Source: Dehalococcoidia bacterium (GTDB lineage: Bacteria; Chloroflexota; Dehalococcoidia; Lucifugimonadales; UBA3495). Taken from it: a stretch of DNA of 64,000 nt. Under the pieces are notes generated by a model. That model made no database searches. It saw only the letters and a program-made list of their open reading frames with translations, and had not been told where the DNA came from. Shown here one piece after another: positions 26,168 to 36,977 of this stretch (position 1 is its first letter; each line of letters opens with the position of its first letter). The stretch spans positions 458,526 to 522,525 of the forward strand of contig CBDBCU010000002.1 of the NCBI GenBank assembly GCA_965203435.1, given 5' to 3'. The translations under genes were made by a program, and so were the position numbers.

Positions 26168-26281
26168 GGGTCGGATGTCAGCCGCCCGGTCAACCGGCGC
26201 CGGTTGACCGAGCCAATACGCCGTCAAGCCGCGGAATCGGTCATCCAAGGATCTTTGCCAACACAGCATCGGGAGGGTAAA

Positions 26282-26761
26282 ATGAACAATGAACGCCCCA
26301 GGAGGAATTGGGCTTGGCCGCCCTTGGTGCCGCGGCCGATTCTGGCGGTGGCTTGGGCCGGCTTTAACGGAATAACCGCCTTGGCCATAGTAATAGACCT
26401 GATTCAGGCCCCGGCGGGGATGCCGGCGTGGTCCGTCATCTGGGAAGCCATCGGCGGCGATGCCAGCGGCGTCTGCTACTGGGCCCTGCTGGGCAGCTAC
26501 CTTTACTCGGAGGTGATTACCATGATTCTCACCAAGTGGGCCAACCAGGCCCGGGTGGAACAGGCCTTGGAACAGGGTCGGTCCGAAGGCCGGACTGAGG
26601 GTCGGACTGTGGGCCGGGCCGAGGGCCGGCAGCGCGGCCGGACTGAGGAAAACCGCCGGTGGCGGGAATACCTCGAGCGCCGGGCGGCGGCGGAAAGGGC
26701 CGGCTTGCCCTTCTATGAACCGATGCCGGAGCCGCCGGATCCTTTCCTAGACGACCACTAG
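26282..26761 (+). CDS. membrane-anchored protein with (E/Q)GR-repeat and Pro/acidic C-terminal tail, hypothetical
   Basis: ORF 26204..26761 trimmed to ATG 26282 (GGGAGGG SD). Hydrophobic N-terminal half, then EQGRSEGRTEGRTVGRAEGRQRGRTEENRRWREYLERRAAAERAGLPFYEPMPEPPDPF. Confidence 0.6.
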   Translation: MNNERPRRNWAWPPLVPRPILAVAWAGFNGITALAIVIDLIQAPAGMPAWSVIWEAIGGDASGVCYWALLGSYLYSEVITMILTKWANQARVEQALEQGRSEGRTEGRTVGRAEGRQRGRTEENRRWREYLERRAAAERAGLPFYEPMPEPPDPFLDDH

Positions 26762-26800
26762 TCCCCCAAAGGAAACCGGCCACCCGCGGAGGGGATTGCT

Positions 26801-27052
26801 ATGATTTTGACCATGTGGGCCAACCAGGCTCGGGTGGAACAGGCTTGGGAAGAGGCCCTGGAACAGGGTCGGTCCGAAGGCCGGACTGAGGGTCGGACTG
26901 TGGGCCGGGCCGAGGGCCGGCTGCGCGGCCGGGCTGAGGAAAACCGCCGGTGGCGGGAATACCTCGACCGCCGGGCGGCGGCGGAAAGGGCCGGCTTGCC
27001 CTTTACTGAACCCCGGCCGGAGCCGCCGGAGCCTTTCCAGGACGACCGTTAG
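26801..27052 (+). CDS. TM-less duplicate of the C-terminal half of 26282..26761
   Basis: GGAGGGG SD. MILTMWANQARVEQ...GRSEGRTEGRTVGRAEGRLRGRAEENRRWREYLDRRAAAERAGLPF. The nucleotide sequence is nearly identical to 26522..26761. Confidence 0.55.
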   Translation: MILTMWANQARVEQAWEEALEQGRSEGRTEGRTVGRAEGRLRGRAEENRRWREYLDRRAAAERAGLPFTEPRPEPPEPFQDDR

Positions 27053-27067
27053 TTCCCCAAAGGGAAA

Positions 27068-27098
27068 CCGGCCACCCTTAAAGGATGGCCGGTTTTTT
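27068..27098 (+). terminator. intrinsic terminator
   Basis: CCGGCCACCC-ttaaa-GGATGGCCGG hairpin followed by TTTTTT. Confidence 0.75.
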
Positions 27099-27134
27099 AC
27101 TGGCAGTTTTGCCGGGGGAGCCACCGACAGCGGG

Positions 27135-27425
27135 CTAGTTGTCCGCCGGAACGGCAACCCGGTCCACGGCGGCAATGCGCTCGGCGATGACTTCCTTCAT
27201 CTTGCGGACGCGGGACAGGTCGGGGTAGGCGTTCCCCTCGGCCTTCTTGTCAAAGATTTTCTCCCCGTCCATAAAGACTTCCATGATGCCCTGGCCGCGC
27301 GGGGAAATCGTAATCGCCGCGTCCGGCCCATAGGCCCGGAAAAACTCGTTCGCCATCCACGTGGCGGTCGCGTGGTGCTGTCAAGGCACGCAGTAGGTAA
27401 TCTCCAGCTGGACCTTTCCTTCCAT
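27135..27425 (-). CDS. SelW/Rdx-family selenoprotein with in-frame TGA (Sec) at 27383..27381
   Basis: The track shows only the 73-aa ORF 27135..27356. In the same frame, upstream: ATG 27425 (AAGGAGG 7 nt upstream), MEGKVQLEITYCVP-TGA-QHHATATW, then MANEFF... The CxxU redox motif sits at the family-typical position, followed by ...GIMEVFMDGEKIFDKK. Confidence 0.8.
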
Positions 27426-27469
27426 GGCTAACCCTCCTTAACCGGTCGATTTGGGGTAAGGTCTAATCC

Positions 27470-27497
27470 ATTCTATACCAAATTATCCCTTTGTCAA
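27470..27497 (-). promoter_or_regulatory. promoter of the selenoprotein gene (TTGACA-N16-TAGAAT)
   Basis: tgtcaa 27492..27497 and attcta 27470..27475 on the + strand, in an AT-richer spacer. Confidence 0.65.
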
Positions 27498-27584
27498 CCC
27501 TTAATCGAAAATCCGATTTTCTTTGTTTTCGGCCTATCCGCTCCCCCGGAACTTGTTGCCGGGTCCCTCGAAGCCGGTCGCTGG

Positions 27585-27610
27585 GTCATCCTGAACTGGT
27601 CAAGGATGAC
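27585..27610. repeat. PAL-4-like palindrome
   Basis: gtcatcctgaactggtcaaggatgac. Confidence 0.6.
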
Positions 27611-27632
27611 CCCGGAAATCCCGCCCTCCCCC

Positions 27633-28412
27633 TTAAAACGCGGGCTGCCGCTTTTCCTTAAAGGCTTGGATTCCCTCTTGCGGATGGGGGGAAGTGGCGA
27701 AGTATTGGATAAAGTTGACGCTTTCCAAGGCGATGCCCTCCCGCAAGGGCAAGGATTGGCCGCGTTGGGTGACGGACTTAATCCGTTCCAAGCCGGCGCG
27801 GCTTTTAGGCCGCAACTGGCTCAGCAGCGTTTCCAGTTCGGCGTCCAGGGATTCCGGCGGGGCGGCGCGCAAGACCAGCCCCCAATCGGCCGCTTCAATC
27901 CCGGACAAGTGGCGGCCGGTGGTCAGCAGTTCCATCGCCCGTTGCATCCCGATGCGGCGGGGCAGGCGCTGCGTAGAGCCGCCGCCGGGCATCAGTCCCA
28001 AGTTGGCGTGCTGATCGCCAATCCGGGCATCCGAAGTAGCCAGGGCTAGATCGCAGGCCAGGAGCAGCTCCAGCCCCCCGGCCAGGACAAAGCCGTGGAC
28101 GACGGCAATAGTGGGAATTGGCAGTTCCTCCAGCTGCAACAGGCAGTCGTTCAGCAATTTCACATAGGGCGGCAGGCGGGACGTCTCGGCAAAGACGGTG
28201 TCAAAAAAGAGCAAATCGGCTCCGGCGCAAAAGGCCCGGCCCGCGCCGCGCAGCACCAGGGCTTTGACCGATTCGTCCCGGCCCACCTCAGCCACGGCAT
28301 CGGAAAACTGTTCCAGCAAGGCCGGGCTTAACGCATTCAGGGCGTCCGGCCGGTTCAAGGTCAGGGTAGCTACGGCAGCCGCCGTTTCCAGTTTCAGGTC
28401 GGTGTAGGTCAA
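27633..28412 (-). CDS. enoyl-CoA hydratase/isomerase (crotonase) family protein
   Basis: TTG start after GGAGG. LTLNRPDALNAL, RAFCAGADL, GFVLAGGLELLLACD. Confidence 0.9.
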   Translation of the reverse strand: MTYTDLKLETAAAVATLTLNRPDALNALSPALLEQFSDAVAEVGRDESVKALVLRGAGRAFCAGADLLFFDTVFAETSRLPPYVKLLNDCLLQLEELPIPTIAVVHGFVLAGGLELLLACDLALATSDARIGDQHANLGLMPGGGSTQRLPRRIGMQRAMELLTTGRHLSGIEAADWGLVLRAAPPESLDAELETLLSQLRPKSRAGLERIKSVTQRGQSLPLREGIALESVNFIQYFATSPHPQEGIQAFKEKRQPAF

Positions 28413-28441
28413 GATTTGCCTCCGGTTAGATTGGCGATAAT

Positions 28442-28469
28442 CCGCTCATCCTGAACTTGTTGGAGGATG
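28442..28469. repeat. PAL-4 repeat
   Basis: ccgctcatcctgaacttgttggaggatg. Confidence 0.75.
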
Positions 28470-28511
28470 GGGTACGCAATTGTTGATGCCGCGGATAGTC
28501 TAATCCCCCCA

Positions 28512-28880
28512 CCGTCATTCCCGCGTAAGCGGGAATCCCGCCATCCCCACCGTCATTCCCGCGTAAGCGGGAACCCCGCCGCCCCTACCGTCATTCCCGC
28601 GCAAGGGGGAATCTCGCCGCCCCTACCGTCATTCCCGCGCAAGGGGAATCCCGGCATCCCTACCGTCATTCCCGCGCAAGCGGGAATCCCGCCGCCCTTA
28701 CCGTCATTCCCACGCAAGTAGGAATCCAGCCGCCCCTTTACCGTCATTCCCGCGTAAGCGGGAATCCCGCCGCCCCCTTACTGTCATTCCCGCGTAAGCG
28801 GGAATCCCGCGGTGGCTTGCCGAGGCTGCGGCATTATAAGGCAGCGCCGTTCTGGATTCCCGCGTAAGCGGGAATGACGG
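28512..28880. repeat. REP-1 array: eight direct hairpin copies at 37-40-bp period, ending in one composite (inverted) element
   Basis: The unit accgtcattcc starts at 28511, 28549, 28587, 28625, 28662, 28700, 28740 and 28780. Spacers are only ~12 nt and near-identical (cgccgcccct). Confidence 0.9.
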
Positions 28881-28960
28881 TGGCGAGGCCGCAGTCAACC
28901 TAGTCTCCGGCAACCCGTTCCGGATGCCCCTTCAACCCGTTCAAGATGGGCGGTATAGCC

Positions 28961-29317
28961 CTACCGGTACATCGGCTTGAAAAAGCTGTGCAGAAAGTTG
29001 CGCTGATGCGCCCAGGAATGGACGCGCTTGACCACCGCCGCCGGGATAGCCTGCCCCTGCCGCTGGGTAATCCGCAGGGTTTCGTAGCCGCTCAACTCCG
29101 GAGGAGCGTCCGCGGTAAAAAGGGCCTCGCAACCGGCGCCGTCGATGAATACTTTCAGGGATTCGTAGCCGGTCACCCGCTTGTTGGGGGTCTGATAGAC
29201 ATACAGCTCGGTGCAGCCGTACAAATCCTCGACATGGTCGTTGCCGTTGCCGCGGCCGCCGCCCTGCCGCAACTGCCGGCGGCCGATGCCGTGGCCCCGC
29301 AAATCCATATTCTGCAT
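28961..29317 (-). CDS. hypothetical protein; N-terminus resembles the distal half of a GNAT acetyltransferase (possible truncated remnant)
   Basis: 118-aa ORF, AAGGAAGGG SD. RGHGIGRRQL...ELYVYQTPNKRVTGYESLKVF resembles GNAT motif A and the following strands. A MITE-2 copy lies just upstream. Confidence 0.35.
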   Translation of the reverse strand: MQNMDLRGHGIGRRQLRQGGGRGNGNDHVEDLYGCTELYVYQTPNKRVTGYESLKVFIDGAGCEALFTADAPPELSGYETLRITQRQGQAIPAAVVKRVHSWAHQRNFLHSFFKPMYR

Positions 29318-29381
29318 AAGCCCTTCCTTTGTATTGGCGGCCGCGGGTTGCGCGTAACCGAGGAATCCCGTCTAAAGGGAT

Positions 29382-29470
29382 GTCATTCCGAGCGTAGCCG
29401 AGGAATCTGAAATGCCCGCCCTTGACTCCCTTGCAAGATTTTTAGATTCCTCGGCTACGCTCGGAATGAC
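29382..29470. mobile_element. MITE-2 copy
   Basis: gtcattccgagcgtagccgaggaatctgaaatgcccgccc...agattcctcggctacgctcggaatgac. Confidence 0.85.
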
Positions 29471-29482
29471 CTAGGAGATTGG

Positions 29483-30391
29483 TTACGGGTAAATCGCCCA
29501 GCCGACCCGGTCCGTTTCGGCCCGGTAAAAGTGGCCGTCGGTGGAAGTAACATACAGGGTAGTCAGGGCCGGGCCGCCGAAACAGCAGTTGGTGGGGCGG
29601 TTGGCGGCGATGGGATGGGTTTCCAGCACCCGGCCGCTGGGGGAAAAGACATAAATCATCCCGCCGGGGCCGCCCAATTCCCAGCCGGCGGTGGCGATGA
29701 TGTTGCCCCCGGCGTCCAGGCACATTCCGTCAATGCCGCGCTGCGCCCCGGCGGCGTCGGCCCCGAAAGTGTGCAGGGTGCGGTAAGCCCCCAAACTGCC
29801 GTCGGCGTGGATGGGATAGGCCCGCAATTCCCGGTTCAAGTCGGGCCGGTCGCTGTTGCTTTCGGCCACATACAGGGTGTTCTGGTCCGGGGATACCAGC
29901 ACGCCGTTGGGCATAGTGGTGTCAAAGGTAACGCGGGATACCGTATAGCTGCCGTCCGATTGGGGGGCGGCGCACAGCACCGAGCGGTTATCCAGTTCCT
30001 CGACCTCGCTGGGATCGATATTGCCGCCGTTCCAGGGATTGGTGAACCAGATGCGGCCGCGGCGGTCAATCGCCAGGTCGTTGGGGGTATTGAGCTTTTG
30101 CCCGTCCACCCGGTCGGCAATCACCGTGGTACCGCCGTCCCGGTCAAAGCGGACAATGGCCCGGCCGCCGGAACAGCAGCCGAACAGGTTGCCCTGGGCG
30201 TCAAAGGCCAGCCCGTTGGTGTGATTGGTGGCGCCGCGATATTCGGCGATTTCCCCGGAAGTGGGGTCGTAGCGCATAATGCGGCTGCTGGGGATGTGGG
30301 TAAAGAGCAGAGCCGCGCCGTCCCACGCCGGCCCCTCGGTAACGCCGCCATAGGGACGGCGGAGCAACTCGAACTGATAAGGCCAAACCAT
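29483..30391 (-). CDS. SMP-30/gluconolactonase/LRE-like beta-propeller protein
   Basis: ORF trimmed to ATG 30391 (GGGAGGG SD). TEGPAWDG..., NGLAFDAQGNL, PNDLAIDRRGRIWFT, GIDGMCLDAGGNI. Confidence 0.85.
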   Translation of the reverse strand: MVWPYQFELLRRPYGGVTEGPAWDGAALLFTHIPSSRIMRYDPTSGEIAEYRGATNHTNGLAFDAQGNLFGCCSGGRAIVRFDRDGGTTVIADRVDGQKLNTPNDLAIDRRGRIWFTNPWNGGNIDPSEVEELDNRSVLCAAPQSDGSYTVSRVTFDTTMPNGVLVSPDQNTLYVAESNSDRPDLNRELRAYPIHADGSLGAYRTLHTFGADAAGAQRGIDGMCLDAGGNIIATAGWELGGPGGMIYVFSPSGRVLETHPIAANRPTNCCFGGPALTTLYVTSTDGHFYRAETDRVGWAIYP

Positions 30392-30493
30392 AATCGGATA
30401 ATCCCTCCCGTTCCGGCCCGGATTTTCCCCGGGCCCGCGCCGGCCATTATAGCAGAGGGAAAGGCGGTTTGCCAGGGGGCGGACGGACGCCGC

Positions 30494-30594
30494 CCGTCCT
30501 TCCCGCGTAAGCGGGAATCCCGAACGGTACTGCCTTATTATGCCACAGTCTTGGTCAAGCAACTGCTGGATTCCCGGGTAAGCGGGAAGGACGG
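30494..30594. repeat. REP-1 composite element
   Basis: ccgtccttcccgcgtaagcgggaatcccgaacggtactgccttattatgcc...ggattcccgggtaagcgggaaggacgg. Confidence 0.85.
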
Positions 30595-30760: not shown

Positions 30761-33700
30761 TTAAGGCCCGGCCACTAAACCCACCGACCACAAATCCCCT
30801 TGCCCGGGGACAAATTGCCCCGTCCGCACTTTCTTGATGGGATAATCCGGCAGAGGAACCGCCGCCAGACACTTGCCATCGAAATGGCCGCCTTGCCGGA
30901 CAAAGGCAAAGCCCCCGTGGGCAAAGCCGGCCTCCCGCCGCTCCGCCGGCAAATCGGCTACATCCTGCGGGACGATATGCAGGAAAAAGCCGGCCGCCGT
31001 ATCATCAGCCGCGCAGGATTCCCGCAAGTAAAGCAGCCGGTTATCCCGCCAATACAAGGCGAAATAATCCCGGGCCGCCGGTTCAGTGCTGGACAAGGCG
31101 GCGTAGTCAGCCCGCAGTTGGTCATATTCGGGCGCGGCGACTAACTCCACCGACCACAAATCGCCTTGGCCGGGGATATGCTGCCCGGTGCGTATTTCCT
31201 TGATGGGATAGTCGGGCAGGGCAACGGACACTAGACACTTCCCATCAAAAGGGCCGCCCCAGCGGGCAAAATCAAAACCCCGGTGGGCAAAACCGGCCGC
31301 CCGCCGCTCTGTCGGCAAAGCGGCAACATCCTCCGGGATGATATGCAGGAAAAAGCGGGCCGCCGTATCCGCCGCCGCGCAGGATTCCCGCAAGTAAATC
31401 AGCCGGTTGTCCTGAACATACAGGTCGAAATAGCCCCGGGCCGCCGGCTGCTCAACGGTCAGAGCGGCATAAGTCGCCCGCAGGGATTCCGGGTCGACCG
31501 GCGGATACCAGTTGACTTCCCAGCGGCCGACTTGCCCGGTGCGGAGGGCGGCGATGGGATAATCCGGCAAGGGAACCGTGGCCAGGCATTTGCCGTCAAA
31601 ATGGCCGCCCCAGCGCCCAAAGGCAAAATCTAGGTTGTCCTTAGCGGCCGCCGGCCCGGCCGACAAAGCGGCGGCGGCCGGGAATATATGCAGAAAGAAC
31701 GGCTCGGCCGTATCCGCCGCCGTGCAGGATTCCCGGAGATAGGTCAGCTGATTATCCTGAATATACAGGGCAAAGAAGTCCCGGAGGTCGGGTTGAATAG
31801 CGGCCAAGGCGGCGTAAGCGGCCCGCAGGGGTTCCGGGTCGGCCGGCGGATACAGGTTCTTTTTCCAGACCCCGGCCTGGCCGGTGCGGATTTCGCGGAT
31901 GGGATAGTCCGGCAGGGGATATACCGCCAGGCAGTCCCCGCCGGGTCGGCCGCCTTGTACGGACAGGTGGAAATCCCGGTTATCAAAGCCGTCGCCCCGG
32001 AGTTCCACCGGCAAATCCGCCAAGTTCGCCGGGTAGATATGCAGGGTTACGCGGGTTGTATATTCAGCAGTGGCGCAGTTCTTTTTGGCGTAGAGCAGGC
32101 GGTTACGGCCGGCCGCCTGGTCCAGGAAAACCTCAAAAGCCGCCGGCCCGGCCGGGGGCGGCTGATTCTGTCGATAGTCGGCGATAATTTCCCGCAAGCC
32201 GCGGCGGGACAGGGGGTAAAGTTCCTCCCACAAGGGCAAGCCCGCCGTCCCCCCGTCGATCCAATGCTGCTGCCGCAGGATAAGGTCGCCGTTGGCATAA
32301 TCCGGCAGTTGGAGGACGGCCAGGCAAAGCCGGCCCAGCCTTACCCCGTGCGTCTTGAGGGTGGCATAGGCCAAGTTTGGTCCCAAAGGCGGCGGCAAGG
32401 TTTCAAGATGGCGGGGAAAAATCCGCACGCCGAACCAGGCATCCGGCTCCTCCGGAGCGCAGTTTTCCCGGACAAAAGTCAGCCGCGGCCCCTCCCGATA
32501 AACATTATAATCGGCGCGGATAATCGGCTCCCGGGCCGTAGCTTGACGGTAAAGTTCCCGGTAAGCGGCGATGGCCGCCGGCGTCATCCGGGCCGCGTGC
32601 AGCGGCCGCAGGGCAATCGGAGTGTTGTGATAAATTTGCCGGGGATAAAGGGAATTAAAAGCCCAATCCGGCTGGCTGGGCTTCGGCTCCCTTAGTTCAT
32701 AATCGGCGCGGCGGCCGGCCCTCAGCAAACGCCGCCGCGCCGCCGCCGGCAGGATTTGCTGATTTTCTACGAGCTTGCTGCTCCCCAATACGACCAGCGT
32801 CTCCCCGGGATGGCGTTCCAGCAGATACTCCAGCGTCCGCCGATAGGCCAATTGCCAGTGATCCATTGCGTACCGCGTCCACAGATATTCCGGAGTAGTC
32901 CGATTCACCAGAAAGTTGAAATAGTCATGCTGCCAGGGATGGAGCTGCATCATCTGGAACAGAACCAATCCCACGCCTAATCCGGCCAAGCCGTACACCC
33001 CGGCCCGCCCCGGCCGCCAACGGGAAAAGCGGCGCGCCAGCCCGCCCAATCCCCCGGCCGCCAGCAGGCAGAAAGGCGCATACAGGAAATAGAAATGCCG
33101 CCAGTTGTCGTACTGATTGGGGCCCAGCAGGGCGGCGGCCAGCGGCGGCAGCAGGAAAGCCGCCAGCAGCAGCCCGGCAAAGCGCTGCCGGGTATTGCGG
33201 AAAACCGCCCCAGGCCGGCGGCAAAGCCCGGCCGCCACGACCGCTATTCCCGCCAGCCCCAGCAGCAGCAACGGCGGCGGCGTGGTGATGCTGAACCAGA
33301 CCACAGTGTAATGCGGCGGCAGTTCGGTGGAAAGAAACCAATCGCCCTGAAACAACTGCCGCGGCGGAACGATCGGATGATTGACCGTCAAGTTCAGACT
33401 CGTCGCCAGGTAGTCCAGCGGTCCCGTCCAGGCGTAGGGGGTGGCGGCGTACCAGGCCAGCCCGGCCGCCAGAATAAACCCTCCGCCGCTCAACAGAATG
33501 TCCCGGCGCGCCGCCCCGTTTCCGGCATAAAACAAGTCCAGCCCCCGCAGGACTAATACTGCGGGAATCAGCATTGCCCCCATAATCCGCAGATTAGTCA
33601 GCAGTCCCACGACTATTCCCAGCAGCGCAAAGGCCCCGATAGTGTCCCGGCGGAAAGCCCGTTCCAGCAGATACAGGGCAAGGATGAACATAGTGAGAAA

Positions 33701-34192
33701 AGGCAGGTCTTTGGAATTGACGAAGGAATGGGCGTAGATGCGGGGGTGCAACAGGAAAATCAGCAGGGCAAACAGGGCCAGCAGGCGATTGTTGAACAAA
33801 TGGCAAGCCAGCCGGTAGCAAAAGAAACCGCCAACGATAAAGAACAGGTGGGTTAAGGTTAAACGGAGCTGGTGGATCTGGTAATAATCCACCAGGCCCA
33901 GGGCCCGCTCGGCCAGCAGCAACGGCAGCTCAAAGGCCACGCCATACAAGGCGTGGGGGTAGGGGAGCTCCTCGAAACTGTCCCCCTGGCCCAGGATGTA
34001 GTTCAGGTTGGCAAGGGCAATCTGCCGCTGCGCCATTTCATCGGTACTGAGGCCGTAATCCCCGGCCAGGAATAACCCGGCCAGCAGAAAAAGGGCGCAG
34101 ACCAACAGGCCGCCATAGGCGGCCAGAAAATTCCGCGCCCCCCGGCTAGGACCGGAATGGGGCGGCGATATGCGGCGCAGTGGCGGGAACAT
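30761..34192 (-). CDS. GT-C fold (PMT_2/ArnT/GT39-like) polytopic membrane protein, paralog C, with five C-terminal two-Cys modules
   Basis: ORF 30761..34225 trimmed to ATG 34192 (MFPPLRRISPP). N-terminal half colinear with paralogs A, B and D. The C-terminal ~590 aa are 5 repeats ending ...LPDYPI.(E/K/A).RTGQ. Confidence 0.85.
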   Translation of the reverse strand: MFPPLRRISPPHSGPSRGARNFLAAYGGLLVCALFLLAGLFLAGDYGLSTDEMAQRQIALANLNYILGQGDSFEELPYPHALYGVAFELPLLLAERALGLVDYYQIHQLRLTLTHLFFIVGGFFCYRLACHLFNNRLLALFALLIFLLHPRIYAHSFVNSKDLPFLTMFILALYLLERAFRRDTIGAFALLGIVVGLLTNLRIMGAMLIPAVLVLRGLDLFYAGNGAARRDILLSGGGFILAAGLAWYAATPYAWTGPLDYLATSLNLTVNHPIVPPRQLFQGDWFLSTELPPHYTVVWFSITTPPPLLLLGLAGIAVVAAGLCRRPGAVFRNTRQRFAGLLLAAFLLPPLAAALLGPNQYDNWRHFYFLYAPFCLLAAGGLGGLARRFSRWRPGRAGVYGLAGLGVGLVLFQMMQLHPWQHDYFNFLVNRTTPEYLWTRYAMDHWQLAYRRTLEYLLERHPGETLVVLGSSKLVENQQILPAAARRRLLRAGRRADYELREPKPSQPDWAFNSLYPRQIYHNTPIALRPLHAARMTPAAIAAYRELYRQATAREPIIRADYNVYREGPRLTFVRENCAPEEPDAWFGVRIFPRHLETLPPPLGPNLAYATLKTHGVRLGRLCLAVLQLPDYANGDLILRQQHWIDGGTAGLPLWEELYPLSRRGLREIIADYRQNQPPPAGPAAFEVFLDQAAGRNRLLYAKKNCATAEYTTRVTLHIYPANLADLPVELRGDGFDNRDFHLSVQGGRPGGDCLAVYPLPDYPIREIRTGQAGVWKKNLYPPADPEPLRAAYAALAAIQPDLRDFFALYIQDNQLTYLRESCTAADTAEPFFLHIFPAAAALSAGPAAAKDNLDFAFGRWGGHFDGKCLATVPLPDYPIAALRTGQVGRWEVNWYPPVDPESLRATYAALTVEQPAARGYFDLYVQDNRLIYLRESCAAADTAARFFLHIIPEDVAALPTERRAAGFAHRGFDFARWGGPFDGKCLVSVALPDYPIKEIRTGQHIPGQGDLWSVELVAAPEYDQLRADYAALSSTEPAARDYFALYWRDNRLLYLRESCAADDTAAGFFLHIVPQDVADLPAERREAGFAHGGFAFVRQGGHFDGKCLAAVPLPDYPIKKVRTGQFVPGQGDLWSVGLVAGP

Positions 34193-34199
34193 AGGCCGG

Positions 34200-34208
34200 A
34201 TTATAGCA
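34200..34208 (-). promoter_or_regulatory. extended -10 box TGCTATAAT, 7 nt upstream of the paralog C ATG
   Basis: attatagca on + strand. Spacer 34193..34199. Confidence 0.6.
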
Positions 34209-34218
34209 TACCCCCTTA

Positions 34219-34357
34219 CCGTCATTCCCGTCCTTTTCTACATTCCCGCCATCCCCTACCGTCATTCCCGCGTAAGCGGGAATCCCGCAGTGGCTTGCCA
34301 AGACTGCGGCATTATACGGCAGTACCGTCGGGATTCCCGCTTACGCGGGAAGGACGG
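34219..34357. repeat. REP-1 cluster with a composite element (core in inverted orientation)
   Basis: ccgtcattcccgtcc..., ccgtcattcccgcgtaagcgggaatcccgcagtggcttgccaagactgcggcattatacggcagtaccgtcgggattcccgcttacgcgggaaggacgg. Confidence 0.85.
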
Positions 34358-34379: not shown

Positions 34380-36977
34380 TCAGGGGGCCACCGCCAACTC
34401 CACCGCCCATAATTCCCCCCGCCCGGGTACATACTGCCCCGTCCGCATTTCCTTAATGCCGCCGGGATAGCCCGGCAAGGCAACGGACGCCAGACACTTG
34501 CCGTCAAAAGAGCCGCCATAGCGGGCAAAGGCAAAATCCAAGTTGGCAAAGCCGGCCGGCCGCCGTTCCGCCGACAAATCCGCAACATCTACCGGGACGA
34601 TATGCAGGAAAAAGTCGGCCGCCGTATCCTCAGCCGCGCAGGATTCCCGGATATAGGTCAAATGCCCGTCCCGCCAATACAGGGCAAAGTAGTCCCGGGC
34701 TGCCGGCGCCACGGCAGCCAGGGCGGCATAATCGGCCCGCAGTTGGTCGGGATCGGCCGGGAAATAGAGGACTTCACTCCAGCGGTCGGATTGGCCGGTG
34801 CGGATTTCCCGGATGGGATAATCCGGCAAAAGAAAGGCGGCCAGACACTCTCCGCCGGGCCGGCCGCCGTAATCGGGCAGTAGGAAGTCCCGGTTCTCGA
34901 ATCCCCCCGTCCAAAGATAAAACGGCAAATCCGCCAAGTTTTCCGGATAGATATGCAGCGTTACCAAGGTTTCATATTCGGCGGGAGAGCAGTCCCCTTT
35001 AGCGTAGAGCAGGCGGTTCTGGCCGGCGGCATCCGGCTCCCGGAAAACGGCGAAACTATCCGGCCGGGCCGGGCGGGGGCTGGCCCGCCGGGCCGCGGCG
35101 ACGCGCTCCCGCAATCCCGGCTGGGCGCGGCTGTAAAGGACCGCCCATTGGTCGCCCTCCGGCTGATCCTGGCCGATGATAAGGTCGTGGGGAGTAGCGT
35201 CGGGCAGTTGGAGGACCGCCAGGCAGGTATTATCCCAGCGCACCCCGTGACTGCGTAAGATAATAGTGGGTTCCCCTTCCCTTCCTCTTGCTGGCGCCGG
35301 CAGGAGAACTTGGGCAAAGACGCGCCGCGCCATATCCCCGGCGGCGCAGTTTTCCCGGATAAAAGTCAAAGTTCGGCCCTGGATATAAACATCGTAAGCG
35401 GCCCGGATGATGGGGGTTCCGGCCACCGTCTGCCGATAAAGTTCCCGGTAGGTTGCCACGGCGGCGGCGGTCATCCGGGATGCTTTCAGGGGTTTTACGG
35501 CCAGCAGAGTATTGTGGTAAGTCCGTCCCACCGGCAGCGCGTTAAAGGCCAAATCCGGATCGTTGCCCTGCCAAATGTAAAACATCGCATAATCCCCCTC
35601 GACGAACCCCTCCCGAAAACCCGGCTCGTCAGCCCAGACGCCCCGCACCGCCAGGGTCTCGTTGGGATGGCGTTTTCGCAGATAGTCTAGGGCCGTCGCT
35701 ACCGCCGCGTTGGGGGAACGAATCTGATACTGCGTCCGCAGATATTCCGGAGTCGTCCGGTCGACCAGGAAGTTGAAATAAAGATCCTGCAAGGGATGGA
35801 TTTGCGTCATCGCGAGGATAATCAAGCCCAAGCCAACCCCGGCCAGGCCGTACGCGCCGGCCGGCAAAACCGGCTTGGCGAATTGTCGGCGGCGGGCGCT
35901 CGAACGACAAATCCAATGCAATCCCCCGGCCGCCAGCAGGCTGAAAGGCGTATACAGGAAATAGAAATGCCGCCAATCGTTATACTGATTGGAACCCAGC
36001 AGGGCGGCGGCCAGCGGCGGCAGCAGAAAGCAAGCCAGCAGCAACCACCCAAAGCGCAATCGGGTATTGCGGAAAACCGCCCCGGGCCGGGTCAGGCTCC
36101 GGGCCAGGACCGCAACGATCCCGACGCCGCCCAGCAACAGTAGCGGCGGCGGCGTGGTAATACTGAACCAGACCAAGTTGTAATGCGGCGGCGTTTCGTT
36201 GGAAAGAATCCATTCGCCTTGGAACAACGACCACACCCGAGTGGGATGATTGACCGTCAATTCCAGGCTCGCCGCCAGGTAGTCCAGGGGATGGGTCCAG
36301 GCGTAGGGCGCGGCGGCGTACAGCGTCAGCCCGGCGGCCAGGGCGAACATTCCGGCCGTCCGCAATATGCTCCGCCGCTGCGGCCAATTCCCGGCATAAA
36401 ACAAATCCAATCCCCGCATTCCCAAGGGAGCCGCAAAGAGCATTATCCCCATAATCCGCAGGTTGGTCAGCAATCCCACCGCTATTCCCAGCAGGACAAA
36501 GGCCCCGATAGTGTCCCGGCGGAATGCCCGTTCCAGCAGATAGAGGGCGATTATGAACATACTGATAAAGGGCGCGTCTTTGGAATTGATAAAGGAATTG
36601 GCATAGATGCGGGGATGCAGGAGAAAAATAAGCAGGGCAAACAGGGCCAGCAGCCGATTGCCGAACAGCCGATAAGCCAGCCGGTAGCAGAAATAGCCGC
36701 CGATAATAAAGAACAGGTGGGTTAGCAAGGAACGGAGGTGGTGGATGTCGCCTTTATCGGTCAAGCCCAGGGCCCGCTCGGCCAGTAGCAGGGGCAGCTC
36801 AAAGGCTACGCCATACACCCGGTCGTGGTAACGCTCCGTCGCCACGCCGTCGGTCTGGCCCCGGATGTAATTCAGGTTAGCTTGGGCAATGCGCCGCTGG
36901 TTCGGCTCATCAATGTGAATGCCGTAATCGCCGGCCAGGGCCAGCCCCGCCAGCAGGAAAAGGGCGCAGACCAGCAA
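34380..36977 (-). CDS. GT-C fold (PMT_2/ArnT/GT39-like) membrane protein, paralog D, three C-terminal modules; as sequenced it is cut off from its native start by a G16 tract
   Basis: 865-aa ORF beginning at a TTG inside the first TM (LLVCALFLLAGLALAGDYG). The conserved N-terminus and promoter lie upstream in another frame (see 36978..37087). Confidence 0.8.
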   Translation of the reverse strand: MLVCALFLLAGLALAGDYGIHIDEPNQRRIAQANLNYIRGQTDGVATERYHDRVYGVAFELPLLLAERALGLTDKGDIHHLRSLLTHLFFIIGGYFCYRLAYRLFGNRLLALFALLIFLLHPRIYANSFINSKDAPFISMFIIALYLLERAFRRDTIGAFVLLGIAVGLLTNLRIMGIMLFAAPLGMRGLDLFYAGNWPQRRSILRTAGMFALAAGLTLYAAAPYAWTHPLDYLAASLELTVNHPTRVWSLFQGEWILSNETPPHYNLVWFSITTPPPLLLLGGVGIVAVLARSLTRPGAVFRNTRLRFGWLLLACFLLPPLAAALLGSNQYNDWRHFYFLYTPFSLLAAGGLHWICRSSARRRQFAKPVLPAGAYGLAGVGLGLIILAMTQIHPLQDLYFNFLVDRTTPEYLRTQYQIRSPNAAVATALDYLRKRHPNETLAVRGVWADEPGFREGFVEGDYAMFYIWQGNDPDLAFNALPVGRTYHNTLLAVKPLKASRMTAAAVATYRELYRQTVAGTPIIRAAYDVYIQGRTLTFIRENCAAGDMARRVFAQVLLPAPARGREGEPTIILRSHGVRWDNTCLAVLQLPDATPHDLIIGQDQPEGDQWAVLYSRAQPGLRERVAAARRASPRPARPDSFAVFREPDAAGQNRLLYAKGDCSPAEYETLVTLHIYPENLADLPFYLWTGGFENRDFLLPDYGGRPGGECLAAFLLPDYPIREIRTGQSDRWSEVLYFPADPDQLRADYAALAAVAPAARDYFALYWRDGHLTYIRESCAAEDTAADFFLHIVPVDVADLSAERRPAGFANLDFAFARYGGSFDGKCLASVALPGYPGGIKEMRTGQYVPGRGELWAVELAVAP

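Follow-up and report, generated by a model that had tools for sequence, protein, structure and literature searches.

A probable SelW-like selenoprotein gene of Dehalococcoidia, with an in-frame TGA conserved in 80 orthologous loci and public gene calls of 71-73 residues

A 73-aa open reading frame (ORF) lies at 27356..27135 on the minus strand of the window, the 64,000-nucleotide stretch of DNA from a marine Dehalococcoidia/SAR202 bacterium that was analysed here. The question raised by this locus is whether the 73-aa ORF is a complete gene, or the downstream part of a longer gene in which a TGA codon is read as selenocysteine (Sec). Its answer depends on where the gene starts, on which protein family the longer product would belong to, on how the codons on both sides of the TGA have been conserved, and on whether the RNA after the TGA can form a selenocysteine insertion sequence (SECIS).

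Gene layout and protein family

The reading frame of the 73-aa ORF extends upstream to an ATG (27425..27423), contains one TGA (27383..27381) and ends at a TAG (27137..27135), all on the minus strand. Translation from ATG 27425 gives MEGKVQLEITYCVP, the in-frame TGA and then QHHATATWMANEFF..., and after the TGA the frame reads QHHATATW before it reaches Met24. The features of the gene are as follows.

27470..27497, minus strand: sigma-70-type promoter-like site, TTGACA (27497..27492), 16-nt spacer, TAGAAT (27475..27470), 11/12 matches
27433..27439, minus strand: Shine-Dalgarno sequence AAGGAGG, with 7-nt spacing to the ATG
27135..27425, minus strand: predicted full coding sequence of a SelW-like/Rdx-family selenoprotein, 96 codons including the Sec codon, and the TAG stop
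27381..27392, minus strand: putative CxxU redox motif TGC GTG CCT TGA, Cys12-Val-Pro-Sec15, with the Sec codon at 27383..27381
27354..27356, minus strand: internal ATG (Met24), the gene-caller start of the 73-aa ORF, without a Shine-Dalgarno sequence
27059..27098, minus strand: intrinsic-terminator-like hairpin, 14 pairs at 27095..27065, core CCGGCCAUCCU/AGGGUGGCCGG, then UUUCCCUUU

The original prediction had placed the start at ATG 27425, 23 codons upstream of the listed ORF, preceded by AAGGAGG at 7 nt and by TTGACA-N16-TAGAAT. All of these elements were found on the minus strand at the coordinates listed above, and the 73-aa ORF begins at ATG 27356, which is codon 24. It had also claimed that ORF callers shorten the gene to 73 aa, and public gene calls give 71-73 aa.

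In a promoter scan of 1.2 kb (26700..27900), TTGACA-N16-TAGAAT was the single site detected, against a shuffle mean of 0.3. The leader between TAGAAT and AAGGAGG is about 30 nt long. TTGAC and TAnAaT-like hexamers were seen by eye at a comparable distance from the start in most orthologous loci. The terminator-like hairpin is located 40-70 nt past the stop codon. An 85-nt segment that includes it has a folding energy of -40.7 kcal/mol (z = -3.7), and none of 200 shuffles was as stable; a pattern scan did not call this hairpin. A T-run also follows it on the plus strand, and it may also end the convergent ORF 26801..27052. The promoter-like site and the terminator-like hairpin at the gene therefore make it look like a monocistronic unit, with a promoter-like site, a Shine-Dalgarno sequence and a terminator-like hairpin of its own.

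A domain search with the full-length product, in which Cys was put in place of the TGA, matched Pfam Rdx (PF10262) above the family threshold, with 50.5 bits (E 2.5e-13, cut-off 22.6). The match spans residues 7-73 and profile positions 2-62 of 74. The 73-aa fragment, which has neither strand beta-1 nor the redox motif, scored 22.8 bits and covered profile positions 25-62 of 74; the N-terminal extension adds about 28 bits. The best NCBIfam matches were SelT/SelW/SelH models and were all below their cut-offs: TIGR02174 (CXXU_selWTH) was slightly short, with 32.7 against 34.2, and NF041051 scored 37.4 against 88. The six best matches in the PDB were 2oka, 2obk, 2fa8, 2p0g, 2ojl and 3dex (E 1e-8 to 2e-5), which are bacterial SelW-related or SelT/SelW/SelH-domain proteins; the SelW-related ones match at E 1e-8 to 8e-7. 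In the PDB alignments, ITYCVP-TGA-QHHATATWMANE aligns with ITYCTQCQWLLRAAWLAQE, which makes the TGA the second Cys of CxxC, and ITYCVP(TGA)Q corresponds column for column to ITYCTQCQ or IRYCTQCN of 2oka, 2obk, 2fa8 and 2p0g. Cys occupies the TGA column in the six solved homologs, giving a Sec/Cys pairing at the redox-active position.

These sequence comparisons establish the gene as a member of the SelW/Rdx family. The SelW/Rdx pattern of the original prediction was borne out by the 50.5-bit score of the read-through product, and the position that it had given for the TGA, exactly at the Sec/Cys site, agrees with the alignment of CVP-TGA to the second Cys of CTQC in 2oka, 2obk, 2fa8 and 2p0g. 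The stop-to-Cys comparison had been named beforehand as a test that could refute the selenoprotein, and in it the TGA falls inside the CxxC column.

The gene product resembles known bacterial SelW-like/Rdx proteins in its length of about 100 residues, in the CxxU/CxxC directly past the first strand (ITYC..U/C), in the W after the motif and in the pattern G.(F/M)EV..dG..i(F/W)d(K/R)K. Structure-based alignments gave 23-28% identity with the solved proteobacterial and actinobacterial Cys forms. The motif is CVPU here (CVSU or CVHU in relatives), whereas the solved Cys forms have CTQC, and the sequence after the motif is QHHATATWMANEFF here and QWLLRAAWLAQELL in those forms. The eukaryotic selenoproteins W, T, H and V are of the same Pfam Rdx family, with CxxU at the equivalent position. 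A structure was modelled with AlphaFold2 for P0001, a relative with W at the TGA codon, from a shallow set of relatives and with low confidence (pLDDT 59, pTM 0.39). The element order in this model is beta-alpha-beta-beta-beta-alpha, apart from one extra N-terminal strand, which lies in a 9-residue N-terminal extension of P0001 that is absent from the window protein. In a Foldseek search with the model, the top 10 PDB matches were all SelW-related, at E >= 0.19 and TM about 0.4, which is not significant.

Conservation across the TGA

Orthologs were scanned with one genome per species, which gave 80 loci with 66-96% protein identity. All 80 come from Dehalococcoidia, Chloroflexota or SAR202 MAGs, and the ortholog group was seen in no other genomes scanned. 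The TGA is present at the Sec codon in 80/80 loci, and all members are predicted Sec forms. The same upstream ATG is used in every one of these loci, and the flanking peptide MEGKVQ(L/I/V)EITYCV(P/S/H)-TGA-QH(H/L)... is kept in all of them. A GGAGG-like motif (GGAGT, GAGAGG and GGAGA are variants) lies 5-10 nt before the ATG in nearly all 80 loci.

The 80 distinct 5' coding sequences differ at most degenerate codons among codons 2-14, and these differences are largely synonymous (pS 0.56, pN 0.06, pN/pS 0.11). Downstream of the TGA, pN/pS is 0.17-0.23. This shows purifying selection at the amino-acid level on the peptide predicted to be encoded upstream of the TGA. With pS of 0.56 and pN/pS of 0.11 in codons 2-14, a pseudogene or an untranslated leader is therefore excluded. 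Conservation of the 5' extension had been a point for checking in the original prediction, and both the upstream start and the N-terminal peptide proved to be kept in all 80 orthologs under purifying selection.

A search of a large protein collection found 442 relatives, and the best 120 of the 442 are nearly all fragments of 71-73 aa that begin at the same internal Met. Several of the fragment relatives are labelled "predicted Rdx family selenoprotein" by JGI. In the public assemblies that carry a nearly identical gene, it is called as 73 aa in all cases and has the same neighbours. The exact sequence of the 73-aa ORF of the window had no record in the look-up, and its nearest relative, P0010, differs by one residue. 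The 73-aa ORF in the public calls is an annotation artefact, produced when the UGA is taken as a stop.

Protein P0008 of the public collection, from a cluster of 16 members, has Arg (CVPRQHH) at the site where all genomes have TGA, together with several other odd substitutions. We take it for a sequencing error rather than a genuine Sec-to-Arg variant. Two of the loci, L034 and L045, lie on a single contig, CBDCEX010000018.1; one Dehalococcoidia genome therefore has a pair of paralogous SelW-like genes, separated by about 290 kb and each containing the TGA.

The hairpin downstream of the TGA

The original prediction had also placed a candidate SECIS after the TGA, as a CCACG/CGUGG stem. A conserved hairpin is indeed present after the TGA; the stem is another one, CGCCA/UGGCG. 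The two elements that came out of the comparison are as follows.

27351..27366, minus strand: core SECIS-like hairpin from RNAalifold, CGCCA (27366..27362), loop CGUGGA (27361..27356), UGGCG (27355..27351)
27345..27374, minus strand: possible extended SECIS, with a lower helix CACG (27374..27371) / CGAG (27348..27345) and an internal loop, weakly conserved

RNAalifold was given 60 distinct orthologous sequences of 57 nt, and its consensus is a single helix, CGCCA/UGGCG. The 5-bp stem is paired in 60/60 sequences (300/300 cells). It begins 14 nt downstream of the TGA, and the internal ATG sits within the hairpin, where its A is the final base of the loop and its TG opens the 3' arm. The closing pair varies among the 60 sequences, being C-G in 47, U-A in 8, G-C in 4 and U-G in 1. 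This covariation links the third position of a Thr codon to that of an Ala codon, both of them synonymous sites; it is confined to one of the five pairs. The other four pairs are invariant, and three of them contain bases that Ala, Thr and Met codons dictate.

Synonymous constraint was seen over the same codons. GCC (Ala21) and ACG (Thr22) are four-fold degenerate, yet they show zero variation in 80 sequences, whereas the entropy of the other four-fold codons is mostly 1.3-1.95 bits. The hairpin codons 20-26 have pS of 0.27, compared with 0.56 (codons 2-14) and 0.75 (codons 27-40) in the flanks, and synonymous divergence is depressed across codons 16-26. In the loop, G (27360) occupies a synonymous site at which no variation occurs, and the next base is U (27359); these are positions 24 and 25 when the U of the UGA is counted as 1. 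The alignment of 80 genomes is a clean case in which protein-coding and RNA-structure constraints overlap on the same bases, and it could help to refine bacterial SECIS models.

The lower helix of the possible extended SECIS is paired in 73% of cells and has zero two-sided changes. It is present in the minimum-free-energy fold of the window sequence in a slightly shifted register. The energies of segments of 20, 30, 51 and 71 nt were not significantly below those of shuffled sequences. The hairpin has an energy of -7.4 kcal/mol (z = -1.8), which was equalled by 12/200 shuffles, and its 71-nt context has z = -0.7. The folding energies are thus unremarkable, and the case for the hairpin is therefore a comparative one. 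An Rfam search of 27250..27450 with E up to 10 found no SECIS family, and its lone match was a chance chrB-a.

A further reading, to which we give little probability, is that Sec is inserted through another SECIS, either CCACG/CGUGG (27375..27371 paired with 27361..27357) or a different non-canonical element. The CCACG/CGUGG stem does appear in the minimum-free-energy folds of the 51-nt and 30-nt window fragments, 90% of its cells are paired across the orthologs, and BSepDB reports no canonical SECIS for 12.6% of bacterial selenoprotein genes (PMC13326102). We rejected it as the SECIS because 26 of the 60 distinct orthologous sequences break its central A-U pair without compensation. Its score is also not lowered by shuffling. 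The two stems overlap and are mutually exclusive, so that CCACG/CGUGG would exclude the covarying hairpin that is paired in every sequence, and it would leave the invariance of the third base of GCC without explanation.

The CGCCA/UGGCG hairpin, the preferred candidate, is similar to the SECIS of fdhF from E. coli, which is also a stem-loop in the coding sequence just 3' of the UGA and has a small apical loop with G-U. The loop bases of the fdhF element, G23 and U24, are close to positions 24 and 25 here. The hairpin differs from the fdhF element in that its conserved helix has just 5 bp and its loop 6 nt, a bulged U is not conserved, and the lower helix is poorly kept. The eukaryotic selenoproteins W, T, H and V depend on SBP2 and on a kink-turn SECIS that lies in the 3' UTR, whereas the candidate element here is a hairpin in the coding region directly after the UGA. 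One tentative explanation, which we think unlikely, is that SelW-like genes of SAR202/Dehalococcoidia use an unusually minimal, lineage-specific SECIS made of a 5-bp helix and a 6-nt loop, with neither a conserved bulge nor a conserved lower stem. Such an element might be written wholly into the invariant peptide (T)ATWMA and might be read by a divergent pair of SelB and tRNA-Sec. If this is true, the clade defines a distinct class of bacterial SECIS that is missed by standard SECIS models.

Decoding of the UGA and surroundings of the gene

Taken as a reading of sequence data, the locus is best described as a gene for a Sec-containing SelW-like protein in which the in-frame UGA is read as selenocysteine, with a probability of about 0.9. 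In the mechanism that we propose, SelB carrying Sec-tRNA(Sec) would bind the hairpin CGCCA-[CGUGGA]-UGGCG and would touch the loop G and U. This binding would occur with UGA-C in the ribosomal A site, and the delivery of selenocysteine would compete with termination by release factor 2. The protein would be a small thiol/selenol oxidoreductase with an Rdx fold, in which Cys12 and Sec15 could form a selenenylsulfide, as proposed for CxxU Rdx proteins.

The Sec trait is documented in the Dehalococcoidia/SAR202 clade. Dehalococcoidia bacterium UBA1141 has 49 selenoprotein genes in BSepDB and a second Dehalococcoidia MAG has 46, and both are among the ten richest organisms of this database, in which species are entered only when they have at least two of SelA, SelB and SelD (PMC13326102). 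Locus L077, with an ortholog that is 67% identical and keeps the TGA, comes from UBA1141, and this gives indirect support for Sec machinery in the genome of the window. A tRNA-Sec has been reported from Chloroflexi (PMC5389517), and the Chloroflexi tRNA-Sec is reported to have an 8/4 acceptor/T-stem configuration. One study, with SAR202 bins in its data set, reports SelA and SelB to be enriched in bins of sponge symbionts from various phyla (PMC5649159). In marine metagenomes, no other selenoprotein family is reported to be as abundant as the SelW-like proteins.

The Sec machinery was also searched for in the DNA at hand. No tRNA-Sec was found by ARAGORN in the 64-kb window and the 80 related 20-kb loci, or by Rfam in the window. 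tblastn with E. coli SelA, SelB and SelD (approximate query sequences) found none of the three in the window and 1.6 Mb of loci; a single match, in L065, proved to be LepA. The window and the loci cover about 0.5% of each genome, and this null result is therefore uninformative on the genomes.

The UGA could also be decoded as something other than Sec, by a reassigned code (Trp or Gly), by near-cognate read-through of a leaky UGA-C or by insertion of Cys. A handful of database entries (P0001-P0007) translate the TGA codon as W, and termination at UGA is weak when the next base is C. The lack of matches to the Sec machinery in the window and related loci also fits such decoding. Against it, the W entries stem from contigs of less than 1 kb and look like gene-caller artefacts. 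Among long ORFs that show a coding signature, TGA is the stop of 36% in the 80 loci, about one third, and of 6/43 in the window; the code is therefore standard, and genome-wide reassignment of UGA, which was considered as a candidate, was rejected as unlikely from stop-codon usage. The codon lies exactly at the Sec/Cys site of the family. Downstream of it comes a conserved hairpin whose loop contains GU and whose distance from the UGA is canonical, and an ortholog is carried by UBA1141, which is catalogued as Sec-utilising with its 49 selenoprotein genes. On this evidence we consider non-Sec decoding very unlikely.

Least probable of all, and hardly credible, is the view that the 73-aa ORF (27356..27135) is the true gene, that the upstream 23 codons are an untranslated leader or a decayed remnant and that the TGA either ends translation or is the lesion of a pseudogene. 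In its favour, this ORF is the one in all public gene calls, and the fragment by itself barely reaches the Pfam Rdx threshold (22.8 vs 22.6). Against it, the fragment covers profile positions 25-62 only and has neither strand beta-1 nor the redox motif, purifying selection on the amino acids of the upstream 14 codons is strong (pN/pS 0.11, pS 0.56), the Shine-Dalgarno sequence is at ATG 27425 with none at ATG 27356, and the TGA is kept in 80/80 loci down to 66% protein identity, unlike a pseudogene lesion.

As a Sec-containing protein, the SelW-like gene product belongs to a type that has been described before, its lineage has already been recognised as selenoprotein-rich, and the gene leaves current understanding unchanged. 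Its value is mainly for annotation. The public calls inspected, of 71-73 aa, are without the catalytic CxxU motif, and analyses of the SAR202 proteome, pangenome and redox metabolism would therefore miss or misread the gene.

Further hidden selenoprotein genes were also looked for. A scan for a Shine-Dalgarno sequence, a start and one TGA outside larger ORFs returned the SelW-like gene alone. BLAST for Sec/Cys pairs among the loci gave mostly off-frame artefacts, with nothing convincing after filtering, and a GC3-filtered list of in-frame TGA codons was too noisy.

The stops of the long ORFs in the window are TAG in 22, TAA in 15 and TGA in 6, and those in the related loci are TAG in 38%, TGA in 36% and TAA in 26%. 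TAG is unusually frequent as a stop for DNA of about 60-62% G+C, both in the window and in L001-L080. Low use of TGA might be tied to heavy use of Sec-UGA in the clade.

An enoyl-CoA hydratase gene lies upstream of the selenoprotein gene, and an SMP-30/gluconolactonase-family gene is also among its neighbours. Duplicated small ORFs, a thymidylate kinase and a SpoIIIAA-like ATPase lie downstream. The neighbouring genes give no functional clue to the selenoprotein. In two nearly identical public contigs, L082 and L084 (1..2712), compared with 27633..30562 of the window, the upstream enoyl-CoA hydratase and SMP-30/gluconolactonase genes are missing, and their place is taken by a gene with a ThsB-like TIR domain, which is a component of Thoeris defence, and by an ORF without annotation that lies beside EF-Tu. 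These contigs mark a strain-variable boundary at the selenoprotein promoter. The small ORFs 26204..26761 and 26801..27052 (plus strand) have no Pfam match and share a C-terminal module of 83 residues with 84% identity. This module has (S/T)EGR repeats and a proline-rich tail, and the two ORFs, which arose by duplication in place, are oriented towards the selenoprotein gene.

Two types of palindromic element occur farther along the window. At 28505..28891 there is a tandem array of about nine units of 37-40 nt, each with the palindrome GTCATTCCCGCG-TAAG-CGGGAATCC, and one additional copy in inverted orientation (28844..28891). It was considered as a CRISPR and rejected because the period is too short and unique spacers are absent; the array looks like a palindromic repeat cluster of the REP/BIME type. 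It yields spurious ORFs with the peptides 'SFPRKRESR' and 'IPAQAGI'. The second type is a separate 31-nt inverted repeat at 29382..29470, GTCATTCCGAGCGTAGCCGAGGAATC..., which is 97% complementary, and copies related to it give rise to the recurring 'HSERSRGI' ends of several ORFs. Two very large ORFs of 1154 and 865 aa lie in tandem at 30761..34225 and 34380..36977 on the minus strand. Their sole domain is PMT_2 (a dolichyl-phosphate-mannose-type glycosyltransferase) near the N terminus, and the remainder is unannotated.
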